Below, piece after piece: positions 4,524 through 40,016 of a stretch of 64,000 bases of DNA. Below the pieces are notes generated by a model. The model worked only from the letters and a program-made list of their open reading frames with translations, did not search any database and was not told the origin of the DNA. Positions within the stretch are counted from its first letter, which is position 1; every line of letters starts with the position of its first letter. Location: positions 64,001 to 128,000 of the IMG/VR virus record IMGVR_UViG_3300023179_000013; one strand, given 5' to 3'. Source of the stretch: a virus. Both the position numbers and the translations under genes were made by a program.

Positions 4524-5840
4524 ATGAGGGAAAGGAAACCAACACCAAAAAATGCTATTGATATAGATAAGGAATTTATAAATCCTTATTTGTCTAATCT
4601 GGGTAAACCAGTAGTGGAAGGTCATCCTTTAGAAAATAATCGTGGTATAAATTATTCATTTAAAAATGATACTGTAAAAGACATTAGTATTGGTTTACAA
4701 GATATTGATGAAGCTATAATGTATTATTTTAATGAAGTTATTAAACCTACAGTTGTTCAAGACGGAAATAGAATGGCTGTAAGAACAATGTATGGTAACC
4801 CTGAACGTTGGAAATCAGTTCAAGCTGATGGGTTTTTAAGGGACGGTAACAACCAAATTATTGTTCCTGTTATAATGATTAAACGTGAAAATATTGAAAA
4901 AGTTAGAACTTTAGGTAATAAAATAGATGGTAATACTATTGCTTTATATCAAGTAGTAGGATCAAAATATAATCCTAGAAACCAATATGATAATTTTGGT
5001 GTATTAAACAATAGAATTCCTTCTGAACAATATTATGTAACTACAGTACCAGATTATCTTACATTAACATATAGTTGTATTATATTTACAAACTTTGTAG
5101 AACAAAATAATAAAATAGTAGAGGCAATTGAATTTGCTTCTGATTCATATTGGGGTGATCCAAATCGTTTTAAATTTAGAACAAGCATTGATTCATTTGC
5201 TACTACAGTTACAATTGAAAATGGAGCTGATAGAGCAGCTAAATCAACATTTAACTTTAAAGTACAAGGATATATAATCCCAGACACAGTAAGTAAAGAC
5301 TTAGCAACAGTACGTAGTAAATTCTATACAAAATCACAAGTGATATTTGATATGGAAGTAATAACTTCTACACAACAATTAGTTAATACAGCTGCTAATA
5401 AAAGTGTTGCTTCTTCTAATGAAGCACAAATAGATCAAGTTACATTTGCTAATGAACCTGAAGCATTAAATTCAGGTGGTGCTTCATCTTTTATTGGAGG
5501 AGGAATAAATGTATTAAGATCAAGTTTTAATATATCTGCAGCAGATGCTGGTGATTTAGATTATCTAAATACCAATATAAGCAAAACAGCAAACACAGTA
5601 ACAGGACCAAATGTAGCCATACTTACAGGTGCTGCTTTACTTCAACCTCCAGTTGGCTCATCATTACCTGCAACATCAAATGATAACTTTACATTTACTG
5701 TTAACGGAATAGATGTACCATCATCTTATATAACAATTGTAGAAGCTGGTGGAAATGTAACATTAATATTTGATACTACTAGTATGGGTTATACATTAAT
5801 TTCAACAGACGAAGTTATAGCTGTTGGTAAATTCCAATAA
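4524..5840 (+). CDS. Tail completion/sheath terminator-like protein (gp15-like) with a C-terminal extension
   Basis: Motifs YGNPERWKSVQ, VPDYLTLTY and F-x-F-KVQGYIIP; synteny. Confidence 0.5.
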   Translation: MRERKPTPKNAIDIDKEFINPYLSNLGKPVVEGHPLENNRGINYSFKNDTVKDISIGLQDIDEAIMYYFNEVIKPTVVQDGNRMAVRTMYGNPERWKSVQADGFLRDGNNQIIVPVIMIKRENIEKVRTLGNKIDGNTIALYQVVGSKYNPRNQYDNFGVLNNRIPSEQYYVTTVPDYLTLTYSCIIFTNFVEQNNKIVEAIEFASDSYWGDPNRFKFRTSIDSFATTVTIENGADRAAKSTFNFKVQGYIIPDTVSKDLATVRSKFYTKSQVIFDMEVITSTQQLVNTAANKSVASSNEAQIDQVTFANEPEALNSGGASSFIGGGINVLRSSFNISAADAGDLDYLNTNISKTANTVTGPNVAILTGAALLQPPVGSSLPATSNDNFTFTVNGIDVPSSYITIVEAGGNVTLIFDTTSMGYTLISTDEVIAVGKFQ

Positions 5841-5842
5841 AG

Positions 5843-6052
5843 ATGGCGCGAATTAGGTTAGAACAATTAAGGGCAAATCTATACTATGATACAGGATCAA
5901 ATGTGTTGTCTGTATCTGGTTCACTTAATATTACCCAAACATCTCCTTCTTATCCTGCCTTAACCAATTCTGGTTCATTTTACGTAGTAGACTCCCCTAA
6001 TGTAGCAAGTGGTTCATATAATGGAAATGCAATTGACGGAGGAACATACTAA
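5843..6052 (+). CDS. Small virion/fibre-associated protein
   Basis: SGS-rich, ends IDGGTY, directly precedes the fibre gene. Confidence 0.5.
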   Translation: MARIRLEQLRANLYYDTGSNVLSVSGSLNITQTSPSYPALTNSGSFYVVDSPNVASGSYNGNAIDGGTY

Positions 6053-6067
6053 TTGATATTTATACAC

Positions 6068-6126
6068 GGCTTACATAAGCCAAAGCATCAGAGGTATATA
6101 CCGTTTAAATTGATCCATACATATGG
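6068..6126 (+). promoter_or_regulatory. Three mini-hairpins with TA(C/T)ATA cores at a 23-nt period; the last covers the ATG
   Basis: GGCTTACATAAGCC (6068-6081), GGTATATACC (6093-6102), CCATACATATGG (6115-6126). Confidence 0.6.
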
Positions 6127-9100
6127 CTGTTAATATTGAATTGAAACGTAGTGCGGTCCCTGGTAAGGTGCCTACCACTAGTTCCCTAAATTTAGGTGAA
6201 ATTGCCATCAACACTTATGATGGTAAAGTATATTTCAAAAAAGACAATGGAACTGCATCCATTGTAGAATTAGCAGCACTTGCCTCTGGTTCTTTACCTC
6301 CAACATCATCATACTCTATTAGCTCATCGTATGCTGTAACAGCATCATACGCTGTTACTTCAACATCGGCTAGCTATGCATTATCATCAAGCTATTCTTT
6401 TAATGCTACTAGTGCATCTTACTCATTAACAGCTACAAGTGCATCATATGCTACTAGTGCATCATACTCTAACACATCATCATATGCCGCTACAGCTACT
6501 AGTGCATCATATTCATTAACAGCTACAAGTGCATCATATGCGGCTACAGCATCATCAGCAGATGATTTTACTGTTAGAGGTACTTTAACGGCTCAAACAA
6601 TTATAGCTCAGTATATTACATCATCTACTGAATATATAACTGGATCAACAAAATTCGGTTCTCAATTATCAAATACACACCAGTTTACTGGATCAGTATC
6701 AATAACTGGTAGTTTAGCTATAAACGGTGTTGATTATGCATCAACATCTGCATCATTTAATACTAGAATTACAAACAATAGTGCTAGTATTGCTGCATTA
6801 TCTGCTTCATTCAATGGATTTAGTGGATCATTTAATACTGGTTCATTTACAGGATCGTTTAATGGTCAATTTATAGGATCATTTAGTGGTTCATTAAACA
6901 ACTTACAAGGCGCACCAACATACATTCCATTCTTTAGCTCATCTCAAGTATTAGCTAATAGTTCAATGTATCAAGTTGGTACATCTAGTATTGCTATTAA
7001 CCAAACAAACATTACAACAGCCAATCCAGAGGCATTGTATGTTTCTCAAACACATCCAACTTCAATAAATGTAATTAGTGGTAAAGGTAACTTAAACAAC
7101 TACTTACAATTAAATATATTTAACACCAATCAAGGAGCTTCAGCTTCATCAGATATAGTTGCTACAGCCAATAATGGTAATGAAACTACCAACTATATTG
7201 ATATGGGTATCAATAGTGAATTGTACAATCAAAACTTTATTGGTGCTGCAAATGATGCTTACCTATATTCTACAGGTAATGATTTGCATATTGGTAATGC
7301 CACATCAAATAAAGCGCTACAATTCTTTGTAGGAGGAACTGATGTTGATGTATATAATAAGCTTCAACTTAATTCTGATAACAGACATAATATGTCTGGT
7401 TCATTAGATGTGAGTGGAAGTATTAAAGCACAAAGCTTTACAGGCTCATTACTTGGAACAGCATCATATGCTGCTAACGCTAATACCGCTTCTTATGCAT
7501 TGAATGCTTCGAATGCTGTTAGCTCATCATTTGCTAGTACAGCATCTTATGTACTACAAGCAGTATCTGCTTCGTTTGCAACACAAGCAGCAAATGCAAC
7601 AAGTGCTTCATTTGCTACTACTGCTTCATATGTACTTCAAGCAGTATCTGCTTCTTATTGGAGTGGTAGCATATTAAATGCAACTAGTGCTTCATTTGCT
7701 TCTACAGCATCGTTTGTAGCAAATGCTCAAACAGCTTCGTTTGTTCAAAATGCTGTTAGTGCATCGTTTGCTTTAACAGCATCCTATGCTAGCAATGTTC
7801 CTGCAACCGCATCTTATGCTTTACAAGCATTAAGTTCATCTTATGCCTTAACAGCATCATATGCTATGAATGGTGGTAGTGGTACTTCATTCCCTTATAC
7901 AGGTAGTGCTATTATAACCGGAAGTTTAGTTGTAACAGGATCTACTACATCAACAGGTGGATTTACAGGATCATTATTAGGAACATCTTCGTTTGCTAAT
8001 AATGCTACTTCAGCATCATATGCTACTACTGCATCTTATGTTTTAAATGCAGTAAGTAGTTCATTTGCCTCAACAGCATCGTTTGTAGCTAATGCTCAAA
8101 CGGCATCATATGTACTTCAAGCAGTATCTGCTTCATTTGCTACTAGTGCTTCACTAGCTCAAACAGCAAGTTACGTATTAAATGCTGTAAGTTCATCATT
8201 TGCAGCTACTGCCTCTAGAGTTAATCAACTTAACCAAGCAGTAGTAATATCTGGGTCTTTAACAGTAACAGGTTCAACTAACTTTGTAGGAGATACAGGC
8301 ACAACACTATTTTCAGCTAATGCTGATACTTTAACATTTACAGGTTCAATCTATACAAGTGGCTCTATTGTTTCAACTGGTAGTTTAAATATTACTAGTA
8401 TAACTAGCTCCTTACTTGGAACTGCATCTTATGCTACTCAAGCATTAACAGCATCAAATGCTAATACTGCTTCTTATATTTTAAATGCAGTAAGTAGTTC
8501 GTTTGCCTCTACTGCTTCGTTTGTAGCTAATGCACAAACTGCTTCTTATGTTTTACAAGCAGTAAGTTCATCATTTGCAACAAGTGCTTCATATGCATTA
8601 AGCTCATCTCAAGCTCAAAATGCTACAAGTGCTTCATTTGCAATAACATCTGTAACAGCATCATACGCTAATAATCTTACAGTAGCAGGTACTTTAACTG
8701 CTCAAACAATTGTAGCACAATATATAACTTCATCTACAGAATACATTACAGGATCTACTCAATTTGGAAGTATTATAACTAATACTCACCAATTTACCGG
8801 TTCAGTAAGTGTAAGTGGATCTTTAGCTGTAAACGGATCAAATGTAATCTTAACAAATCAGACATCGTCAATGTCTGTTGCTACTGCTTCATTTGTTCAA
8901 AATGCAGTTAGCTCATCTTTTGCATCAACAGCATCGTTTGTAGCTAATGCTCAAACAGCATCATATGTCTTACAAGCAGTATCTGCCTCATTTGCTACAT
9001 CTGCTTCTCAAGCTCAAAATGCTACTACAGCATCTTATATACTAAATGCTGTAAGTTCATCATTTGCTAGCACAGCATCATTTGTTCAAAATGCACAAAC

Positions 9101-12100
9101 AGCATCTTATGTTTTAAATGCTGTATCTGCCTCTTATGCATCAAACGCTGACTTATTAGATGGTAAAGACAGTACTATATTTGCTACTACAGGTTCAAAT
9201 ACCTTTATTGGTAATCAAACAGTAACAGGATCACTTATACAAACTGGAAGTTACTATCATGTTGGTGATAGTATTCATACAGGTAGTGTTTATCATAGTG
9301 GTAGTAAGTTTTTAAATGGAGTATTTTCACAAACAGGATCTTTAAGTATAACTGGTTCTACTACTCAAATAGGAAATAATACTTTAGTAGGTAATACTAT
9401 ATTATCAGGTAGTATTATAATTTCAGGTTCAAATACCACTCCTCCAACTCCTACAGTTAAAGTGTATGGAGATATGGAAACAAATGGTGTAATTAAATTT
9501 TTACCAGTTGTTAAAAGTATAGATACTTCAATATCTGCCTCTTACATTTATGTAAGTGGATCTACAAGTGATTTGTATTTTTCTCAAAATGGTAGTGGTT
9601 ATACTAACAATGTTCGCCTTCGCTGGATAGAAGGTAACTTGTATACTGGTTTATTAGGAGGTGGTGTACTAAGCTCCACTCCTGGATCAACAACATTTAA
9701 TTTATCTTCTGGTTCAGGTATTGTAGTAACTTTAAATGCATCTACTGGATCAGCAGATCCATATCCAACAGTCCAATATCTTAACTGGCCAACTTATACA
9801 AGCCAACCAATTATTAACTCTGGTTCGGCTAAAATTACTTATGTTAGTGTAAAATCAGATGGTACTATCAATCAACAAGTAGTACCAATTGGTTCAACAG
9901 ATATTACTCAATATGATACTCAAATTGAAATAGGTGTTGTATTACACTTATCTGATAGTGTATCTACTGGTGTTTATAATGCACCTCAAGTAGCATATGG
10001 ACAAGCTCAACGTACAGATGATTTTATTAGAGCGTTTGGACCAATAAAAATATCAGGACATACTTTACAACCTAGTGGATCAACATTAGGATTGATTAAA
10101 ACAGCAGGTACATCTTACAATAACGGATCTAATTATGTTGTAAATCCAAATCACCCATCTACAGTATCTGATCCGGCGATTACTACAAGTAAAATTTATC
10201 GCTACTATGTTTCAGGATCAACTCCAATAATTGATACTGGAGTTGCAGCTGCTGGTTACACAGTAATTGATCCTTCAAAATATAATAATAACGGTGTTTT
10301 ATCATCTGTAGCAGGTGGTCAGTATACAATCCAAAGAGTATTCTGGATTCCAAATTCACCAACAAACGCATTCTTAGTTTATTATGGTAATGCTGTTTAT
10401 AATAGTGCTGCAAACGCTCAAGCTGCAATTGATACAGAACCATTTACAGAAGCACCTAATACAGCAGCAAATGCTATTTTAGTAGCTTATATTATTGTGT
10501 TAGGTAACGAAACCAACCTAACAAATGCTACCTTTGTACAAGGTGGATTATTTAGATCAATAGCGGGTATAGGAAACAGCAATACATCTCCTGTATCCAA
10601 CACATTAGCAGGTTTATCAGATGTATCTATCGCTAGTAGAACATCAGGCGACTTATTATACTATAACGGTAGCCAATGGGTTAATAGTAAATCATTAACC
10701 GGCAACTATAGTATTACTGGTTCGTTTGCTACAAACGATGGCATTACAGCAGTAACTGTAACAGCAACATCATTTACAGGTTCATTAAGCGGTAGTGCTA
10801 CAAGTGCTTCATTTGCATCAACAGCATCATATGTTCTACAAGCAGTATCTGCTTCATTTGCCTCTACTGCATCATATGTAGCAAATGCTCAAACATCCTC
10901 TTATGTACTAAATGCTGTTAGTTCATCATACGCAGCAACAGCATCTGTTGCTCCATTATATGTACTAACTAGTGCTACATCATCGATGTTAGCTCCATAT
11001 GTTTTAACATCACAGACATCTTCAATGTCTGTATTAAGTTCATCATTTGCTGCAACATCATCATACGCAAACAACTTTACAGTAGCAGGTATTTTAACTG
11101 CTCAAACAATTGTTGTTCAAACAATAACATCCAGTACAGATTATGTAACTGGTTCTAGTCGCTTCGGAAGCACATTAAGTAATACACACCAGTTTACTGG
11201 CTCAGTAAGCATAACTGGAAGTTTAACTTCACCAAACATAACAGGTAGTTTATTTGGAACGGCTAGTTGGGCTAACAATGCTATAACAGCATCATACGTT
11301 TTAAATGCAGTAAGTAGCTCGTTTGCTTCTACAGCATCGTTTGTAGCAAATGCTCAAACAGCATCATACGTTTTAAATGCAGTAAGTAGCTCGTTTGCTT
11401 CTACAGCATCGTTTGTAGCAAATGCTCAAACAGCATCATATGTTTTACAAGCAATAAGTGCTTCATTTGCTTCTACAGCTTCATATGTTAATCCACTTAA
11501 CCAAACAGTACAGATAACTGGATCAATACAAGTAACAGGATCTAAGAGTACATTTATCAATACAGCTGCTAATGATACTGTAGCTGAATTTGTAGCTGGT
11601 GGTTCTACTGGTATAAGATTTAGTAGTGCAACCGTTGGATCTTCTGCTGCAGTGTTTATTCGTCCACAAGATGGATTAATACAAGGACAAAACTACAGCT
11701 ATTTCACAATAACAGGAGCAAGTGCTAAACTTAAATTAAGTACAGACAATTCAGCCAACCCAATAGAAATGCAGGGTGGCAATGTTCTTTTAAATACAAC
11801 CACAGACGCTGGCTTTAGATTAGATGTAAATGGTACCTCTCGCTTCCAAAACAACATGCTTGTAACAGGTTCTGTTACTGCAACTTCATTCACAGGCTCC
11901 TTAAGTGGCAGTGCTACAAGTGCAACAAGTGCTTCGTATGCAGCAACTGCATCATTTGTAACAACAGCTCAAACAGCATCATATGTCTTAAATGCAGTAA
12001 GCTCTTCATTCGCATCAACTGCATCGTTTGTTCAAAATGCAGTATCTGCTTCGTTTGCAACATCTGCAACTAGTGCTCAAACAGCTTCTTATGTTCTAAA

Positions 12101-13988
12101 TGCAGTAAGTGCTTCATTTGCTAGTACTGCCTCATATGTTAATCCGCTTGTACAAAACGTATTAGTAACAGGCTCTCTTACAGTTACAGGAAGTGCATTA
12201 GCTAGCAATCTATATTCCGGTTATACTTTATATATTTCAAGAACAGACCAAGGAGGAATTCCCAACTCAAATTCAGGCTATATAAGATATGGAACTAATA
12301 ATGATTTTCGATTTTATACTCATACAAACGCATTTGCTCCATTAGTAGTTGCAGATGTTGGAGGAGGTTATGATGGATTCTCTAGAGTATTTTTTCCAAG
12401 TTATGGTAATATAGTTATAGGAACTAGTGCAAATAAACCAAATACAACAATATATGGTAATGTAAGTATAGACTCAAATACATTTCCCGGCTATAAACTT
12501 TATGTTTCTGGATCAGGTACTTCTGGCTCACTTAACATAGATGATACACTATATATTAATTCAAGTAGAAATGTATTAATAGGTACTACTACAGACGCTG
12601 GTTATAAGTTAGATGTAAATGGTACTTCTCGTTTTACAAATAACATGCTCGTAACAGGCTCTGTTACAGCAACTTCATTTACCGGTTCTTTAAGCGGTAG
12701 TGCAACTAGCGCTACTAGTGCATCATTTGCATCTACTGCATCATTTGTAACAACAGCACAAACAGCATCATATGTTTTAAATGCAGTATCTGCTTCATTT
12801 GCAACATCTGCAACTACTGCTCAAACAGCATCATATGTTTTAAATGCTATATCTGCTTCATTCGCATCAACAGCATCTAGTGTTAATACATTAAACCAAA
12901 ATGTAATAATAACAGGTAGCTTAACAGTAGGAGCTACTTCAGTTGGAGCAAATGAAAATACATTAATATTAGGACCAGCTCCAGCAGGTGGCGCAGGTGA
13001 AGGTGGACAGTTATTATTACAAGCTAAAGGAGATAGTGGATATACCTCAGCTTCAATGCTTGATAACTGGCAAAACTATACTAGATTATTAAGAGGTAGT
13101 AATCAAAGTAGTGATGCAGTGGTAACTCAATGGAATATGCATACCAAACAGGTATCATTTCCAGCATATAATAGTGTATCAGCATTTGCAGGAACGGCAG
13201 TAGCTAACTTAGCAGTTGATTCGGGTGGTAATATTCTTACAGTATCAACATCAGGAGGAAGTGTTTTTCCTTATACTGGAGTTGCATCTATAAATGGTGG
13301 ATTAATAGTAACCGGTTCTATAACTGCATCTAGTGCTATTCACGCTCAAGCAAATGGTGCAATGTATTTTAGAGGTGGTGATGATGCTGAGTTATGGGAT
13401 ATAAACGTTGCAAATACAGTTGGTGTTTACGGACAACAAGATCAAACAGTAGGCTCTATCAAATTAGGTAGTGGTGGTGGAACAATTTCAGGTAAAAGTG
13501 GAAATATTGGTATTGGTACTATAAATCCAACCTCAGCTTCATTACAAGTAAATGGTAATGTATTTGCTACTTCATTTACTGGTTCATTACTTGGAACAGC
13601 ATCGTTTGCTACTACATCTACAAGTGCTTCATTTGCAGCAACAGCATCGTTTGCGTCTAGTGGATTTACAGTTGGTATATCTCAATTCCAAACAGCAACA
13701 GTAGCATCATCGATTGCCGGTGCAAATAACTTATTTACTACACCAACAGGTTCCTTCACAGGCGCTAAATACTTATATACCGTAACAAGCGGTTCAAACG
13801 CTAGAATGGGTGAAATATTTGCAGTATGGAGTGGTGGTAGTGTTCAATATACTGATATTTCAACATTAGATATTGGAACTACAACAACTGTTACAGCATC
13901 AGTTTCAATAGTAACAGCACAAGCACAATTGAACTTCCAAACCAATACTAGTGGATGGACAATTAAATCACAAGCAACATTTATTTAA
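6123..13988 (+). CDS. Giant modular tail fibre protein (2621 aa)
   Basis: N-terminal LKRSAVPGKVP...GEIAINTYDGK fibre-attachment motif; dozens of ASFASTASYV-type repeats; repeated THQFTGS and TTTDAGYKLDVNG modules. Confidence 0.85.
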   Translation: MAVNIELKRSAVPGKVPTTSSLNLGEIAINTYDGKVYFKKDNGTASIVELAALASGSLPPTSSYSISSSYAVTASYAVTSTSASYALSSSYSFNATSASYSLTATSASYATSASYSNTSSYAATATSASYSLTATSASYAATASSADDFTVRGTLTAQTIIAQYITSSTEYITGSTKFGSQLSNTHQFTGSVSITGSLAINGVDYASTSASFNTRITNNSASIAALSASFNGFSGSFNTGSFTGSFNGQFIGSFSGSLNNLQGAPTYIPFFSSSQVLANSSMYQVGTSSIAINQTNITTANPEALYVSQTHPTSINVISGKGNLNNYLQLNIFNTNQGASASSDIVATANNGNETTNYIDMGINSELYNQNFIGAANDAYLYSTGNDLHIGNATSNKALQFFVGGTDVDVYNKLQLNSDNRHNMSGSLDVSGSIKAQSFTGSLLGTASYAANANTASYALNASNAVSSSFASTASYVLQAVSASFATQAANATSASFATTASYVLQAVSASYWSGSILNATSASFASTASFVANAQTASFVQNAVSASFALTASYASNVPATASYALQALSSSYALTASYAMNGGSGTSFPYTGSAIITGSLVVTGSTTSTGGFTGSLLGTSSFANNATSASYATTASYVLNAVSSSFASTASFVANAQTASYVLQAVSASFATSASLAQTASYVLNAVSSSFAATASRVNQLNQAVVISGSLTVTGSTNFVGDTGTTLFSANADTLTFTGSIYTSGSIVSTGSLNITSITSSLLGTASYATQALTASNANTASYILNAVSSSFASTASFVANAQTASYVLQAVSSSFATSASYALSSSQAQNATSASFAITSVTASYANNLTVAGTLTAQTIVAQYITSSTEYITGSTQFGSIITNTHQFTGSVSVSGSLAVNGSNVILTNQTSSMSVATASFVQNAVSSSFASTASFVANAQTASYVLQAVSASFATSASQAQNATTASYILNAVSSSFASTASFVQNAQTASYVLNAVSASYASNADLLDGKDSTIFATTGSNTFIGNQTVTGSLIQTGSYYHVGDSIHTGSVYHSGSKFLNGVFSQTGSLSITGSTTQIGNNTLVGNTILSGSIIISGSNTTPPTPTVKVYGDMETNGVIKFLPVVKSIDTSISASYIYVSGSTSDLYFSQNGSGYTNNVRLRWIEGNLYTGLLGGGVLSSTPGSTTFNLSSGSGIVVTLNASTGSADPYPTVQYLNWPTYTSQPIINSGSAKITYVSVKSDGTINQQVVPIGSTDITQYDTQIEIGVVLHLSDSVSTGVYNAPQVAYGQAQRTDDFIRAFGPIKISGHTLQPSGSTLGLIKTAGTSYNNGSNYVVNPNHPSTVSDPAITTSKIYRYYVSGSTPIIDTGVAAAGYTVIDPSKYNNNGVLSSVAGGQYTIQRVFWIPNSPTNAFLVYYGNAVYNSAANAQAAIDTEPFTEAPNTAANAILVAYIIVLGNETNLTNATFVQGGLFRSIAGIGNSNTSPVSNTLAGLSDVSIASRTSGDLLYYNGSQWVNSKSLTGNYSITGSFATNDGITAVTVTATSFTGSLSGSATSASFASTASYVLQAVSASFASTASYVANAQTSSYVLNAVSSSYAATASVAPLYVLTSATSSMLAPYVLTSQTSSMSVLSSSFAATSSYANNFTVAGILTAQTIVVQTITSSTDYVTGSSRFGSTLSNTHQFTGSVSITGSLTSPNITGSLFGTASWANNAITASYVLNAVSSSFASTASFVANAQTASYVLNAVSSSFASTASFVANAQTASYVLQAISASFASTASYVNPLNQTVQITGSIQVTGSKSTFINTAANDTVAEFVAGGSTGIRFSSATVGSSAAVFIRPQDGLIQGQNYSYFTITGASAKLKLSTDNSANPIEMQGGNVLLNTTTDAGFRLDVNGTSRFQNNMLVTGSVTATSFTGSLSGSATSATSASYAATASFVTTAQTASYVLNAVSSSFASTASFVQNAVSASFATSATSAQTASYVLNAVSASFASTASYVNPLVQNVLVTGSLTVTGSALASNLYSGYTLYISRTDQGGIPNSNSGYIRYGTNNDFRFYTHTNAFAPLVVADVGGGYDGFSRVFFPSYGNIVIGTSANKPNTTIYGNVSIDSNTFPGYKLYVSGSGTSGSLNIDDTLYINSSRNVLIGTTTDAGYKLDVNGTSRFTNNMLVTGSVTATSFTGSLSGSATSATSASFASTASFVTTAQTASYVLNAVSASFATSATTAQTASYVLNAISASFASTASSVNTLNQNVIITGSLTVGATSVGANENTLILGPAPAGGAGEGGQLLLQAKGDSGYTSASMLDNWQNYTRLLRGSNQSSDAVVTQWNMHTKQVSFPAYNSVSAFAGTAVANLAVDSGGNILTVSTSGGSVFPYTGVASINGGLIVTGSITASSAIHAQANGAMYFRGGDDAELWDINVANTVGVYGQQDQTVGSIKLGSGGGTISGKSGNIGIGTINPTSASLQVNGNVFATSFTGSLLGTASFATTSTSASFAATASFASSGFTVGISQFQTATVASSIAGANNLFTTPTGSFTGAKYLYTVTSGSNARMGEIFAVWSGGSVQYTDISTLDIGTTTTVTASVSIVTAQAQLNFQTNTSGWTIKSQATFI
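11285..11440 (+). repeat. Exact 72-bp tandem repeat (about 2.2 copies) within the fibre gene
   Basis: The unit starting CAGCATCATACGTTTTAAATGCAGTAAGTAGCTCG occurs at 11287 and 11359, with a partial copy at 11431. Confidence 0.9.
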
Positions 13989-16810: not shown

Positions 16811-16821
16811 TATAAACCCCC

Positions 16822-16845
16822 GTCTCAGGGACAGTGAACTGAGGC
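16822..16845 (+). promoter_or_regulatory. Stem-loop with a GGACAGTGAA loop in the 5' leader of the second fibre gene
   Basis: GTCTCAG-GGACAGTGAA-CTGAGGC; no T-tract; ends 9 nt before the ATG. Confidence 0.45.
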
Positions 16846-16854
16846 AGTACATAA

Positions 16855-19626
16855 ATGCCAAATGAATTCGTTGCCAGGAATGGCATAATTGCGCTTAATA
16901 ATTCATCAATAACAGGTTCTTTAGGTGTATCCGGTGGTATCACTGGATCTCTACTTGGTACTGCCTCATGGGCATCAAATGCCGTTACATCATCTTATGT
17001 ACTAAATGCAGTAAGTGCTTCATTTGCTAGTACAGCATCATTTGTTAATCCGCTTTTACAAAATGTATTAATAGGAACAACAACAGATGCTGGTTATAAA
17101 TTAGATGTAAATGGTACAACTAGAATACAAGGAGCAATAACATTAAATAATGGACAAGGAAATGCTCTTATACAACAGGTTGGAACTCAGGTTTATTTTC
17201 CTAATGCAAATGGAATTGCCGGTTATGGATTTTCTTCTCCAAGTAATGGAGTACAAACGTTTAAAGATAACTATGTTTTAGGAACAGCATTAACATCATC
17301 TGCAGCAAATGATGGTGTTCAAACAGGATATAGTTTTGATACACTTTATTCCTTAATATCAGGAAATAAAATAGCTAAATTTACTACGACAGGTTCGTTA
17401 AAAGCATATATAGATTATGATGGAAGTATTTGGTCTAGTGGTTCTGGTACTTTTATAAAGGGATTATCAGTAACTGGATCTTTAAATGCTCCTTCAATAA
17501 CTGGTTCACTTCAAGGAACAGCTTCATGGGCAAACAATGTAATAAGTGCTTCATTTGCTACAACAGCATCAAATGCTTTAACAGCATCTTATATATTAAG
17601 TGCTGTATCTGCTTCATTTGCCTCTACAGCATCATCCGTTAATACATTAAACCAAGCTGTAGCAATATCTGGTTCCTTCACAATAGTAACAGGCAGCGGA
17701 GTAGAATTCCAAGTAACAAACACAGGAACTAAGATCGGTAACATAGCAACCGACACTCACACCATCACAGGCTCAATGTACCAATCAGGCTCTACAGTAG
17801 CCCTCTCACTCCGCGGCTCAGGCTCAGGTGTGTTTACAGTTGATGGAACATCAGGTCGTCTCTTCTCAGTAGACGATTCACTTTCAGGTTCACTCTTCAG
17901 TGTAAACACAGCAGCAGGTTTACCTATTATAGAAGCATTCTCTGATAATACTGTTCGTATTGGACAATACGGACAAAGAGTATTATATGTTTCCCAATCT
18001 AGAGTTGGTGTTGGTAAAGAAACAGGATTAAATGGTGTATTGGATGTTAGTGGAAGTGTTACTGTAACAGGTTCACTTAATGTAAGCGGTTCAATTACAG
18101 GTTCGCTTTTAGGAACAGCATCCTTAGCAACAACAGCATCAAATGCTTTAACAGCATCTTATGTGTTGAATGCCGTAAGTGCTTCATTTGCCTCAACTGC
18201 TAGCTTCTGGAGTGGCAGCGTAACAAACGCTACTAGTGCCTCATTTGCAACCACATCATCATACGCTAATAATTTTACAGTAGCAGGTACTATAACAGCA
18301 CAAACGCTTGTAGTACAAGAAATAACATCATCAAGAGACTTTGTAACTGGTTCTACACGCTTCGGAAGTTTATTATCAAACACTCATCAGTTTACTGGTA
18401 GTGTAAGTATGACTGGTAGTTTAACAACAAACGGAAATACTATAGTATCGGGTTCTTTAACAGTAGCAACATCATCTAATCAGGGAGGTGTTCAACTTTA
18501 TAGTAATTCATCAGTGGGAGGAGGAATTAGATTTTCTCATACAAACGGTAGTGTTATAGGTAGAATAGAATTAAATGCTGGTGGTGGAACAACTGGTTTA
18601 GATTTATATGCTTATGATTATTTTAATTTTAAAACACTTAATACAGCTATAAACTTCATAACAACAACCGCAACTAACTGGTACACATATAGTGGAAATA
18701 AATTTAACTTTGTAGGATATACAGGGTTTGGTGGTGAGGTTATAATGAAAAACAACCTAGATGGTACTGAAGTTTTTCATGCATATTTAGCTGATACATA
18801 TAAAGTAGCTTTCCCAACAGGAAGTGTTAGTATAGGTAAACCAGCAGCAACTACTCCAAATGCAACATTAGATGTTAGTGGATCAGTTACCATAACAGGC
18901 TCTCTCACAGTTATCACAGGCAGTGCAATTGAACTCCAAGTTACTAATACTGGTGTTAAAATCGGTAATGCTATTACAGATACTCACACAGTAACAGGTT
19001 CTATTAATATTAGTGGTAGTGTAACTGCAACTAACTTTACAGGTTCCTTATTCGGAACTGCAAGTTGGGCAACAACAGCAACAAGAGTTATAGGTGGTAC
19101 TAAAGATTATGTTGCTGTATGGGATACTGGTGGTGTGTTAACAACAGGATCCGTTTTTAATCCTAGTGCTACTGGTAATGTTGGTATAAACAACTTATCA
19201 CCATCATATAAAGTACATATTAGTGGTAGTACTGCTATATATGGGGGTGGATTAATAGTATCAGGTACCTTAGCAACATCAGGTAGTGGTTCTCAAGGTT
19301 TAGTAGCACCACTTAAATTTACTACACCTACATTAGGATCTAGTTATACTTTAGTGTATACAGACGAAGGAAAAATAGTTGAAATGAATAATAATGCGGA
19401 TGCTCCATTAACATTAACAATCCCATTAAACTCAAGCGTTGGTTTTCCTATTGGTACAGAAATTTCTATTATACAAATAGGTTCGGGTACAACTATAATT
19501 ACAGGAAGTGCTGGCGTAACAATAAATAGTTCAGGGGGATTAAAAACTCTTCAAAATCAATATGATGTTGCCTCTATTGTAAAACGTGGTACTGATAGCT
19601 GGTATTTATTTGGTAACTTAGGTTAA
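16855..19626 (+). CDS. Second modular tail fibre protein (923 aa)
   Basis: Shares repeat and THQFTGS/TTTDAGY modules with the 2621-aa fibre; C-terminal YTLVYTDEGK...FPIGTEI...KRGTDSWYLFGNL domain of a type common in phage fibres. Confidence 0.8.
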   Translation: MPNEFVARNGIIALNNSSITGSLGVSGGITGSLLGTASWASNAVTSSYVLNAVSASFASTASFVNPLLQNVLIGTTTDAGYKLDVNGTTRIQGAITLNNGQGNALIQQVGTQVYFPNANGIAGYGFSSPSNGVQTFKDNYVLGTALTSSAANDGVQTGYSFDTLYSLISGNKIAKFTTTGSLKAYIDYDGSIWSSGSGTFIKGLSVTGSLNAPSITGSLQGTASWANNVISASFATTASNALTASYILSAVSASFASTASSVNTLNQAVAISGSFTIVTGSGVEFQVTNTGTKIGNIATDTHTITGSMYQSGSTVALSLRGSGSGVFTVDGTSGRLFSVDDSLSGSLFSVNTAAGLPIIEAFSDNTVRIGQYGQRVLYVSQSRVGVGKETGLNGVLDVSGSVTVTGSLNVSGSITGSLLGTASLATTASNALTASYVLNAVSASFASTASFWSGSVTNATSASFATTSSYANNFTVAGTITAQTLVVQEITSSRDFVTGSTRFGSLLSNTHQFTGSVSMTGSLTTNGNTIVSGSLTVATSSNQGGVQLYSNSSVGGGIRFSHTNGSVIGRIELNAGGGTTGLDLYAYDYFNFKTLNTAINFITTTATNWYTYSGNKFNFVGYTGFGGEVIMKNNLDGTEVFHAYLADTYKVAFPTGSVSIGKPAATTPNATLDVSGSVTITGSLTVITGSAIELQVTNTGVKIGNAITDTHTVTGSINISGSVTATNFTGSLFGTASWATTATRVIGGTKDYVAVWDTGGVLTTGSVFNPSATGNVGINNLSPSYKVHISGSTAIYGGGLIVSGTLATSGSGSQGLVAPLKFTTPTLGSSYTLVYTDEGKIVEMNNNADAPLTLTIPLNSSVGFPIGTEISIIQIGSGTTIITGSAGVTINSSGGLKTLQNQYDVASIVKRGTDSWYLFGNLG

Positions 19627-38598: not shown

Positions 38599-39981
38599 AT
38601 GACAACATTAAGTAAATTAAATCAATACGGAAACGCGTTTCAAGTTAAAGTACTAGGAGCACTATTAACACAACGTGAGTTCCTTCTCAACATAGCAGAT
38701 TCATTAGACCCAGAATACTTTGAATCCAGTGCTCATAAATGGACAGTAGAATACGTTCAAAAATACTTCCAACAATATCACACTTATCCCACTATTGAAA
38801 CATTATCAATCGAAATTAAAAAAATTGAAAATGAGGTATTACGAATTTCTCTCACTGACTCACTTCGTGAAGCTTATAAAATGGCTGACGTTAGTGATTT
38901 GGAATGGGTTGAAAAAGAATTTAGCGATTTCTGTAAGAACCAGCAAATGAAAAAAGCCATTATGACCTCTGTTGATCTACTCAACATGGGAGATTATGAT
39001 GGTATCAGAGCATTGATTAACGATGCTATGAAAGCAGGTGAAGATAAAAACGTTGGTTTGGATTATGCAGTAGATATTGAAACACGATATCGCGATGATG
39101 ATAGAGGCGCTATTCCATTCCCTTGGAAAACATTCAACGACCTTACACAAGGTGGTTATGGTAAAGGCGATTTAGTACTACTATTCGGTAACCCAGGCGG
39201 TGGTAAATCATGGGGTGTTATGGCTATGGGTGCTTACGCAGCAGCATTAGGATATAATGTTATCCACTACACACTAGAACTATCTGAAGGGTACGTTGGT
39301 AAACGTTATGATGCAATATTTTCAGGTATTGATGTTGATAAACTAAATGAGCATCGTACAGATGTGGAAGAATCAATTGCTAAGGTTAAGGGTAAAATAA
39401 TGATTAAAGAATACGCACCTAAACGCGCGTCTTTAGATACGATAGAGGCCCATCTTCAGCAACTTGAACATCAGAATGAGTTTAAACCCGATTTGATTAT
39501 AATTGATTATTTGGACTTGCTACGCACTAAAGGTAGAAAGGAACGTAAGGATGAAATTGATGACGTTTACACTGATGCTAAAGGTTTAGCAAAACAGCTC
39601 ATGATTCCAATTGTATCACCATCACAAGCAAATAGAACAGGCGCTGATGAAGATATCTTACAAGCTAAAAACGCAGCAGGATCATACGATAAGATCATGA
39701 TTGGAGATATCATTGTATCATTAGCACGTGGACGTAAAGATAAAGTAAACGGAACAGGTAACTGGCACTTCATCAAAAACAGATATGGTGCTGATGGATT
39801 AACATTCAGCTCCAAAATTAATACCGCAAACGGATTTATAGATATATACGATCAACCTCTAGATGATGAAGAATTTGAAACTAAGAAGAACAATAAGAAA
39901 ACAAATGACTTCTCTGATGTAGGAGTAGAAGATAGATTTGTTCTTCGAAGTAAGTTTGCTAAATTTGAAGAGGAACAATAG
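38599..39981 (+). CDS. Replicative DnaB-like helicase (gp41-like)
   Basis: GNPGGGKS, TLELSE, IIIDYLDLL, SQANR, KNRYG. Confidence 0.92.
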   Translation: MTTLSKLNQYGNAFQVKVLGALLTQREFLLNIADSLDPEYFESSAHKWTVEYVQKYFQQYHTYPTIETLSIEIKKIENEVLRISLTDSLREAYKMADVSDLEWVEKEFSDFCKNQQMKKAIMTSVDLLNMGDYDGIRALINDAMKAGEDKNVGLDYAVDIETRYRDDDRGAIPFPWKTFNDLTQGGYGKGDLVLLFGNPGGGKSWGVMAMGAYAAALGYNVIHYTLELSEGYVGKRYDAIFSGIDVDKLNEHRTDVEESIAKVKGKIMIKEYAPKRASLDTIEAHLQQLEHQNEFKPDLIIIDYLDLLRTKGRKERKDEIDDVYTDAKGLAKQLMIPIVSPSQANRTGADEDILQAKNAAGSYDKIMIGDIIVSLARGRKDKVNGTGNWHFIKNRYGADGLTFSSKINTANGFIDIYDQPLDDEEFETKKNNKKTNDFSDVGVEDRFVLRSKFAKFEEEQ

Positions 39982-40016
39982 TATATACTATATTTATAAC
40001 TACACAAATAAAAGAT

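Follow-up and report, generated by a model that had tools for sequence, protein, structure and literature searches.

A conserved array of small hairpins in the leader of a phage fibre gene and its possible role as a translational operator

Results

Three evenly spaced hairpins lead into a giant fibre gene

The 64,000-nt window studied here comes from a complete phage genome of 168,946 bp that has direct terminal repeats (IMG/VR record IMGVR_UViG_3300023179_000013), and it covers bases 64001-128000. The genome is AT-rich (~33% G+C) and, among deposited phages, its only detectable DNA relatives are Flavobacterium myoviruses. We analysed the leader of a gene for a 2621-aa fibre protein in this window, where three small self-complementary elements follow each other with their centres exactly 23 nt apart (Table 1).

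A first-pass annotation of the window, made from the sequence alone, had described three cores, TACATA (6072-6077), TATATA (6095-6100) and TACATA (6118-6123), each enclosed by a different self-complementary flank. We verified the positions, the 23 + 23 nt spacings and the flanks, which are GGCT/AGCC, GG/CC and CCA/TGG. The full dyads are longer than these flanks and read GGCTTA-CA-TAAGCC, GGTAT-ATACC and CCATA-CA-TATGG. Written as RNA, they give stems of 5, 3 and 4 bp with the tetraloops ACAU, AUAU and ACAU on a closing U-A pair. At 37 °C the pair probabilities predicted for the three hairpins range from 0.76 to 0.99, and at 15 °C they are higher. As the annotation had also stated, the array starts right behind the promoter-like motif ATATTTATA, with a gap of 3 nt, and the third hairpin contains the ATG (6123-6125) in its 3' arm, so that the start codon is inside a hairpin.

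An equally spaced TA[CT]ATA triple (spacing 12-30) was found only once on the + strand of the 168,946-bp genome. The TAYATA core as such is not enriched in the window (180 occurrences vs ~240 expected). No terminator-like site was found in 6053-6122, and the sequence directly 3' of hairpin 1 is AAAGCA. An intrinsic terminator, a cruciform or recombination hot spot and an invertase crossover were considered and rejected, since the stems are not long enough and the window has no U-tract.

Table 1. Features of the fibre leader and its surroundings (positions in the window)
Feature	Position	Strand	Sequence	Remarks
Hairpin 1, GGCUU-ACAU-AAGCC	6068..6081	+	GGCTTACATAAGCC	-5.9 kcal/mol, z = -3.1; pair probability 0.76-0.99
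Hairpin 2, GGU-AUAU-ACC	6093..6102	+	GGTATATACC	-1.6 kcal/mol alone; pair probability 0.77-0.88
Hairpin 3, CCAU-ACAU-AUGG	6115..6126	+	CCATACATATGG	-1.7 kcal/mol alone; pair probability 0.76-0.92; includes ATG 6123-6125
Promoter-like (probably late) motif	6056..6064	+	ATATTTATA	ends 3 nt before hairpin 1
Candidate outer helix enclosing hairpin 2	6087-6090 / 6111-6114	+	ATCA/TGAT	tentative, from covariation
2621-aa fibre gene	6123..13988	+		ORF; first ~50 residues are a conserved N-terminal domain
69-aa ORF ending ...AIDGGTY*	5843..6052	+		upstream neighbour of the fibre gene

The element recurs in the leaders of homologous fibre genes

Two IMG/VR searches, one with the fibre N-terminus and one with a profile of its first 60 residues, listed at least many hundreds of relatives. 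From these we extracted a first set of 91 distinct leaders, and 80 metagenome loci provided a replicate set of 58 new non-redundant leaders. The element, which takes the form of a stem, (C/T)TA-N-ATA(G/A) and the complementary stem, was present in 132 of the 149 distinct leaders from viral and metagenome contigs (80/91 in the first set and 52/58 in the replicate). A hairpin over the ATG was found in 70 of the 149 (45/91 and 25/58). Examples from relatives are GACTTACATAAGTC, GGACTACATAGTCC, GCCTATATAGGC, GGCTAGATAGCC, CGCGTATATACGCG and CCTTATATAAGG, and the loop is ATAT, ACAT, AAAT or AGAT in 156 of the hairpins found.

Hairpins of at least 4 bp with an ANAU loop reached 20 per kb in the 91 leaders. 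The background, taken from 535 kb of flanks and from the genome of the phage itself, was 0.64-0.92 per kb. When stems of at least 3 bp were counted, the 91 leaders held 209 hairpins and shuffled leaders 19 ± 4. The density in the replicate set was 18 hairpins per kb.

The three-site arrangement seen in the window is the commonest layout of the first set, with two upstream hairpins and one at the start in 33/91 leaders (38 if those with more than two upstream are counted), but many relatives have only one or two sites, and the layout with one upstream and one start hairpin accounts for 24/91. Similarly, the exact 23-nt period holds in the window but relaxes across the family, where the spacing is mostly 20-24 nt with modes at 21-23. 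Neighbouring loops lay 21-23 nt apart in 54 of the 120 intervals of the first set, and harmonics near 41-47 nt appeared where the middle hairpin was weak. The replicate distribution was broader, with a mode at 23 nt and 26/72 intervals at 20-24 nt. The loops are conserved upstream of the homologues, and so is a preferred spacing.

The array is tied to one type of gene. Hairpin pairs 19-26 nt apart numbered 15 in the fibre leaders scanned, and about 5 genuine ones were found elsewhere in 1.4 Mb. A scan of the genome for the N-terminal motif of the fibre found it at the giant fibre only. The annotation had counted a TACATA at 16848, before a second fibre gene, as a further site. We rejected it because its flanks do not pair, it lies outside any hairpin and it belongs to a gene with a different N-terminus. 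The suggestion that such control serves a very costly 2621-aa protein does not generalise either, because much smaller homologues carry the same motif.

The carriers include myoviruses and siphoviruses of very different base composition, three cultured cyanophages among them. In the Synechococcus siphovirus S-CBS2, gp052 is preceded by CCGTATATACGG and TGCTAGATAGCA, 23 nt apart. The tail fibre gene of the Prochlorococcus myovirus P-SSM2 has GCAGTATATACTGC and GGTACATACC, 21 nt apart and just 3' of a TAAATAA late-promoter-like motif, and gp156 of the Synechococcus myovirus S-PRM1 has ACCGATAAATATCGGT together with GCC-AUAU-GGC over the start codon.

Two clades depart from the usual form. In an AT-rich clade (L109, L110, L116, L120, L121, L125-L128, L132, L141, L148) the first hairpin has a long stem of up to 11 bp, and a T-run on its 3' side makes it resemble the terminator of the upstream gene; the UAUAUA top is kept. 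A T4-like clade (L091, L095, L104, L107, L139, L153) has a CTAAATA late-promoter-like motif and a leader of ~70 nt. These leaders carry a single hairpin, GAGUAUAUACUC, 3-4 nt before the ATG, and its 5' arm lies within the GGAG Shine-Dalgarno (SD) sequence.

The stems covary while the loop is conserved

Covariation was assessed in A2, an unsupervised MAFFT alignment of 14 close-clade sequences. In helices 1 and 2 we counted 10 pairs changed on both sides, a number reached by 0/500 shuffles, and the signal collapsed when the registers were slid. Double-sided changes were seen in 7/8 pairs of the extended helix of hairpin 1 and in 3/4 pairs of hairpin 2 (GG..CC, AG..CU, GA..UC). Coding constraint (ATG-GCN) keeps hairpin 3 unchanged within the close clade. 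Across clades it varies with codon 2, being CCAU..AUGG with Met-Ala and AGAC-ACAU-GUCU with Met-Ser, and start hairpins of other clades read GUCAU-ANAU-AUGGC or GCC-ANAU-GGC. The observation that pairing is kept while the flanks change, made in the annotation for the three sites of the window, therefore extends to the relatives, in which the flanks covary and the loop is conserved.

We also built a three-hairpin covariance model from the homologous fibre leaders, a check that the annotation had proposed. The array was its single match in the 64-kb window, with 92 bits against 25 on the antisense strand, and the model recovered leaders of clades outside its training.

It could be argued that the array is chance, or functionless filler inherited from AT-rich sequence or from a duplicated promoter-like core. 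TATATA is self-complementary, the late-promoter-like CTAAATA forms a dyad when a G follows it, and some cores are indeed CTAAATA, the late-promoter-like motif found upstream in some leaders. Against this stand the 20- to 30-fold enrichment over flanks, its replication in an independent set and the simulation of 200 genomes (first-order Markov), which gave a mean of 0.005 triples and none with complementary flanks. Moreover, the compensatory changes occur among sequences whose N-termini are only 40-70% identical. We find a chance origin hardly credible, and the comparative data have effectively refuted it.

The leader differs between strands, which favours RNA

Next, we considered the level at which the elements act. 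The annotation had preferred an RNA operator and named an array of DNA operators as the alternative. In that case a regulator of late fibre transcription would use the sites as operators or as structured sites close to the promoter. Spaced by two turns, they would share one face of the helix, and the first would overlap the start of transcription. The geometry agrees with this. The three dyads are 23 bp apart, the 20-24 bp found across the family correspond to about two turns of the helix, and hairpin 1 lies at a fixed 3 nt from the promoter-like motif and overlaps the expected start site. The layout recalls the tripartite operators of lambda, where OR1-3 are three dyads ~23-24 bp apart next to a promoter, and dyads at two-turn spacing beside a promoter-like motif are what we found here (23 and 23 bp; family mode 21-23). 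However, the lambda sites share their arms and are strand-symmetric, whereas the present ones have neither a common half-site nor strand symmetry, and the last of them is the start codon.

The arms of the three sites within this phage are unrelated (GGCTT, GG, CCA). Since they differ among the sites of one phage, it is the complementarity that is conserved and not the arm sequence. A DNA-binding protein would have to read only the 6-bp core, which leaves the complementarity of the arms without a reason.

The centre of the element is asymmetric between strands. To keep the criterion strand-neutral, only sites with Watson-Crick pairs throughout were counted, and the centre dinucleotide was NA (CA, AA, GA) in 39 and TN (TG, TT, TC) in 5 (25 : 4 in the first set, 14 : 1 in the replicate). 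Single internal non-Watson-Crick pairs show the same kind of bias, with 11 G.U and no A.C (7 : 0 and 4 : 0).

In clades with SD-like runs an outer helix surrounds the penultimate hairpin, and its 3' arm is the purine-rich run itself. The arms read CCC/GGG, CCUC/GAGG, GUCC/GGAC or AUUCC/GGAAU. The helix has at least 3 bp in 21/22 leaders, and its mean length of 4.36 bp exceeds that obtained with permuted flanks (3.26 ± 0.18; the highest of 500 permutations was 3.9). It is also seen in the minimum-free-energy folds of SD-using relatives. The window has a tentative counterpart in ATCA/TGAT, which covaries as ATCC/GGAT in four relatives (L001, L013, L067, L089) and as ATTA/TGAT with a G.U pair in L081. 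In the window this helix is not thermodynamically favoured.

We noted that AUUGAU (6109-6114) has two possible partners. One is 6129-6134 downstream (codons 3-4), a pairing that lengthens hairpin 3 in the minimum-free-energy fold. The other is AUCA 6087-6090 upstream, with which it would form the outer helix. These pairings are mutually exclusive and could constitute a switch.

The strand asymmetry of the loop, the G.U pairs without A.C pairs, the differing arms, the specific pairing of the outer helix with the SD-like run and the last element, which is locked to the start codon and changes with codon 2, all argue for RNA over double-stranded DNA. In addition, Pfam and PHROGs gave no family, DNA-binding or other, to the neighbouring ORFs scanned. 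From this comparison of sequences we favour a leader that functions as one strand, through base pairing, and the simplest candidate for this form is the mRNA. Regulation through DNA operators is in our view unlikely. The RNA part of the earlier proposal is thus the better fit, and the array is specific to the fibre gene.

The promoter-like motif and the length of the leader

The motif ATATTTATA is strongly strand-biased in the genome, the + strand having 24 copies and the - strand 1. Copies in the window are at 507, 1208, 6056, 16499, 20091, 23281, 24335, 26654, 39990, 50085 and 61716, and 13 more are found in the rest of the genome. Most of them lie 14-24 nt upstream of an ATG, often right behind a terminator hairpin, and TATTTAT is invariant in the close-clade alignment A2. 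The motif is probably the phage's late-type promoter. The T4 late motif TATAAATA occurs in it only as its reverse complement.

At 58 nt the fibre leader is the longest behind ATATTTATA, other genes having mostly 14-24 nt (range 1-27). One other copy has its first ATG at 50 nt, and the gene there probably starts at a GTG ~20 nt in. The core stem of hairpin 1 begins exactly 3 nt past the promoter-like motif in 25/38 leaders. We rejected the possibility that the cores are themselves late promoters, since the phage's own promoter-like motif differs, the last core sits on the ATG and siphoviruses carry the elements too.

A direct repeat of 21 nt with 71% identity (6051-6071 / 6108-6128, AATTGAT...GGCT) brackets the leader. 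It is probably due to chance, because it is not conserved in L081, the closest relative (93%-identical). Elsewhere, a perfect palindrome, ATAGTATATACTAT at 39979-39992, overlaps the ATATTTATA copy at 39990 by 3 nt and is placed upstream of this promoter motif. It precedes a thioredoxin-like gene (WCxPC near the start) and has TAGTATATACTA in common with hairpin 2 of some fibre leaders.

The genes around the leader

The first ~50 residues of the fibre, MAVNIELKRSAVPGKVPTTSSLNLGEIAINTYDGKVYFKK, are a widely conserved domain, with R9, S10, G14, P17, G25, E26, N30, D33 and G34 invariant in the N-terminal alignment A1. In annotated T4-type phages the gene for the distal or L-shaped long tail fibre begins with the same domain, and in KP27 and dhaeg it lies just downstream of the gene for a gp36-type hinge connector. 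The 69-aa ORF upstream of our fibre gene ends in a short motif that recurs at this place. A C-terminal DGG(T/S)(F/Y)* was found no more than 100 nt upstream of the fibre ATG in 41/91 leaders, and the hinge connectors of KP27 and dhaeg end in IDFGSY* and EDFGYY*. From this short motif and the gene order, the locus is most likely a hinge-connector / distal-fibre junction. The recurrence of the motif suggests a conserved C-terminal peptide that docks onto the N-terminal domain of the fibre.

PHROGs and Pfam assigned no family to the fibre, the 69-aa ORF or a 438-aa ORF when the neighbouring ORFs and the fibre N-terminus were scanned, and the N-terminal profile had no meaningful match among the sequences of the PDB. 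The second fibre gene (16855-19626) has an N-terminus of another type and no ATATTTATA directly upstream. It has a leader hairpin of its own at 16812-16846 (GTCTCAG ... CTGAGGC, with a 10-nt loop).

Discussion

A possible mode of action

The elements exist and are conserved, covarying, strand-specific and gene-specific. From this we infer that they act as RNA, on translation and by repression; the readers named below are candidates. The fibre mRNA would carry in its leader an array of small hairpins with variable stems of 3-8 bp, the conserved loop A-N-A-U closed by U-A (U-A-N-A-U-A) and a spacing of ~22 nt, the last hairpin holding the start codon. A putative loop-specific and probably oligomeric factor would clamp two or three hairpins together and keep the start region shut, thereby setting the rate of fibre translation. 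In hosts that use SD sequences, the outer helix around the penultimate hairpin would keep the SD closed as well. We hold this multi-hairpin translational operator, bound by such a factor, with middling confidence.

A dedicated reader may not be needed if the hairpins act in cis only. Hairpin 1 would then stabilise the 5' end of the late transcript, and hairpins 2 and 3 would slow the loading of ribosomes and thereby prevent overproduction of a virion protein needed in few copies. Stem-loops at the 5' end protect bacterial mRNAs (ompA-type leaders), and hairpin 1 adjoins the promoter-like motif, which is the position of such a protective structure. Start codon and SD are paired, and the pair probabilities of 0.8-0.99, higher at 15 °C, are predicted without any factor. 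However, a thermodynamic device needs neither an invariant U-A-N-A-U-A top across AT-rich and GC-rich phages nor a preferred spacing of 20-24 nt, and with -1.6 and -1.7 kcal/mol hairpins 2 and 3 could do little to hinder the ribosome. The weak hairpins, the invariant top and the preferred spacing together point to binding sites and not to a self-sufficient thermodynamic block. We consider a purely cis-acting leader improbable.

The hairpins might also be cleavage sites for RNase E/G, RNase Y or a phage enzyme, their stems presenting AU-rich loops as targets. Cleavage would separate the fibre message from read-through RNA of upstream origin or else inactivate it. RNase E prefers R-N-A/U-U in single strands next to stems, and the A-N-A-U loop resembles this preference; the leader also lies between two genes with no terminator between them. 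Nevertheless, the start codon would be lost if hairpin 3 were cut, tetraloops serve poorly as single-stranded substrates and the hosts span phyla with different RNase sets. Cleavage as the purpose of the array is very unlikely.

Who could read the loops under the operator model? Candidates are the free, unassembled fibre N-terminus or its docking partner, and a host factor may also serve. The trimeric protein that the annotation had suggested, the fibre or its chaperone, is a speculative candidate. The motif is found only with genes for the N-terminal domain although the phages are otherwise unrelated, so that the most economical reader would come from the fibre module itself. The distal-fibre N-terminal docking domain, or its docking partner, might thus double as an RNA-binding module on its own mRNA, a speculative idea whose truth we regard as doubtful. 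Such a reader would couple fibre translation to assembly, in phages of cyanobacteria, Bacteroidota and other hosts.

Several points weigh against the translational operator. The ~22-nt period also equals two turns of B-DNA, and if a dimeric DNA-binding protein evolves together with its site, matching changes in the two half-sites can look like covariation. In the close clade, hairpin 1 was the only one that RNAalifold recovered. The leader as a whole folds no better than shuffled sequences (z = -0.49), a measure that is uninformative here because the hairpins are so small. Our counts take the sequences as they come and ignore the relatedness among them. The motif is absent in Vibrio phage 1.208.B, KP27 and dhaeg, where the fibre gene overlaps or abuts the upstream gene, and also in P-HM1, which means that it is not obligatory for the N-terminal domain.

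A further point against it concerns the 5' end. In the geometry of T4 late promoters, transcription starts ~6 nt past the motif. If the start were T4-like here, that transcript would begin too late to include the outer pairs of hairpin 1, although these covary. The start may lie nearer the motif in these phages, which would make hairpin 1 a 5'-terminal stem-loop, or read-through RNA may be the relevant species. Hairpin 1 may also work at the DNA level.

Relation to known systems

Rfam 15 assigned no family to the leader (window positions 5800-6400 and 14 homologous leaders, E up to 1-10), and its chance-level matches, snR79 (E = 9.4) and STnc430 (E = 0.81), were both off the leader. No description of the motif was found in the literature on the core sequences, tail-fibre leader hairpins or cyanophage start-site maps. 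It is apparently an undescribed structured leader motif of a known general kind.

By its proposed action the array comes closest to three systems, the leaders controlled by CsrA/RsmA (glgC, hcnA), the thrS operator and the MS2 coat-protein operator. The CsrA/RsmA leaders have several short hairpins with one loop motif, the last overlapping the ribosome-binding region. The multivalent protein bridges sites tens of nucleotides apart and blocks initiation, much as we propose for the fibre operator. At least two hairpins with the last over the ribosome-binding site or start were found in the fibre leaders too (33/91 as 2 + 1 and 24/91 as 1 + 1). The CsrA/RsmA loops, however, are A(N)GGA, whereas those described here are U-A-N-A-U-A with no GGA in any loop, and CsrA/RsmA governs a regulon as opposed to a single phage gene family. 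CsrA (PF02599) had no match in the complete phage genome, and the positive controls were detected.

The thrS operator of E. coli has two hairpins with the same recognition loop beside the start site. A symmetric oligomer of the gene's own product binds them in autogenous repression, which for the fibre gene is hypothetical. The thrS loops mimic the tRNA anticodon arm, unlike those found here. The MS2/R17 coat protein operator is a small hairpin that contains the start codon, with recognised loop bases and a stem that may covary, and its reader is a structural protein of the virion. It is a single hairpin of an ssRNA phage, whereas the fibre leaders have two or three and belong to dsDNA phages. 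Operators of the MS2 type have an A-N-Y-A tetraloop and a bulged A in the stem; the fibre hairpins have A-N-A-U loops and stems without a bulge.

Phage T4 also has RNA elements at or just upstream of start codons, as in the RegA sites, the gp43 operator and genes e and I-TevI. The gp43 operator is a hairpin with a conserved loop, and in genes e and I-TevI the ribosome-binding site is hidden in a hairpin linked to a late promoter (PMC3014915). Because that promoter is placed within its 5' portion, the structure is absent from late transcripts (PMC3014915), whereas here the motif at 6056-6064 is upstream of all three hairpins. The loop sequences of the T4 controls are unrelated to those described here, and the review of T4 post-transcriptional control makes no mention of tail fibres (PMC3014915). 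RegA (PF01818) had no match in our genome, and the control genomes were themselves without RegA.

Meaning for phage fibres

Tail fibres decide the host range of a phage, and little is known about how their synthesis is balanced with that of the rest of the virion. A short, recognisable leader motif in well over 100 phage lineages provides a handle on this control, and the cultured S-CBS2, P-SSM2 and S-PRM1 are among its carriers. It is also a marker for the starts of distal-fibre genes in metagenomic contigs. Even in its minimal reading, the finding adds a structured-RNA family that is new to Rfam. Together with a specific reader, should there be one, the leader would represent a compact new RNA-protein system with three natural copies of the operator. 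If this reader is the N-terminal domain of the fibre or its docking partner, the array would belong to an unrecognised and widely distributed class of phage riboregulators.

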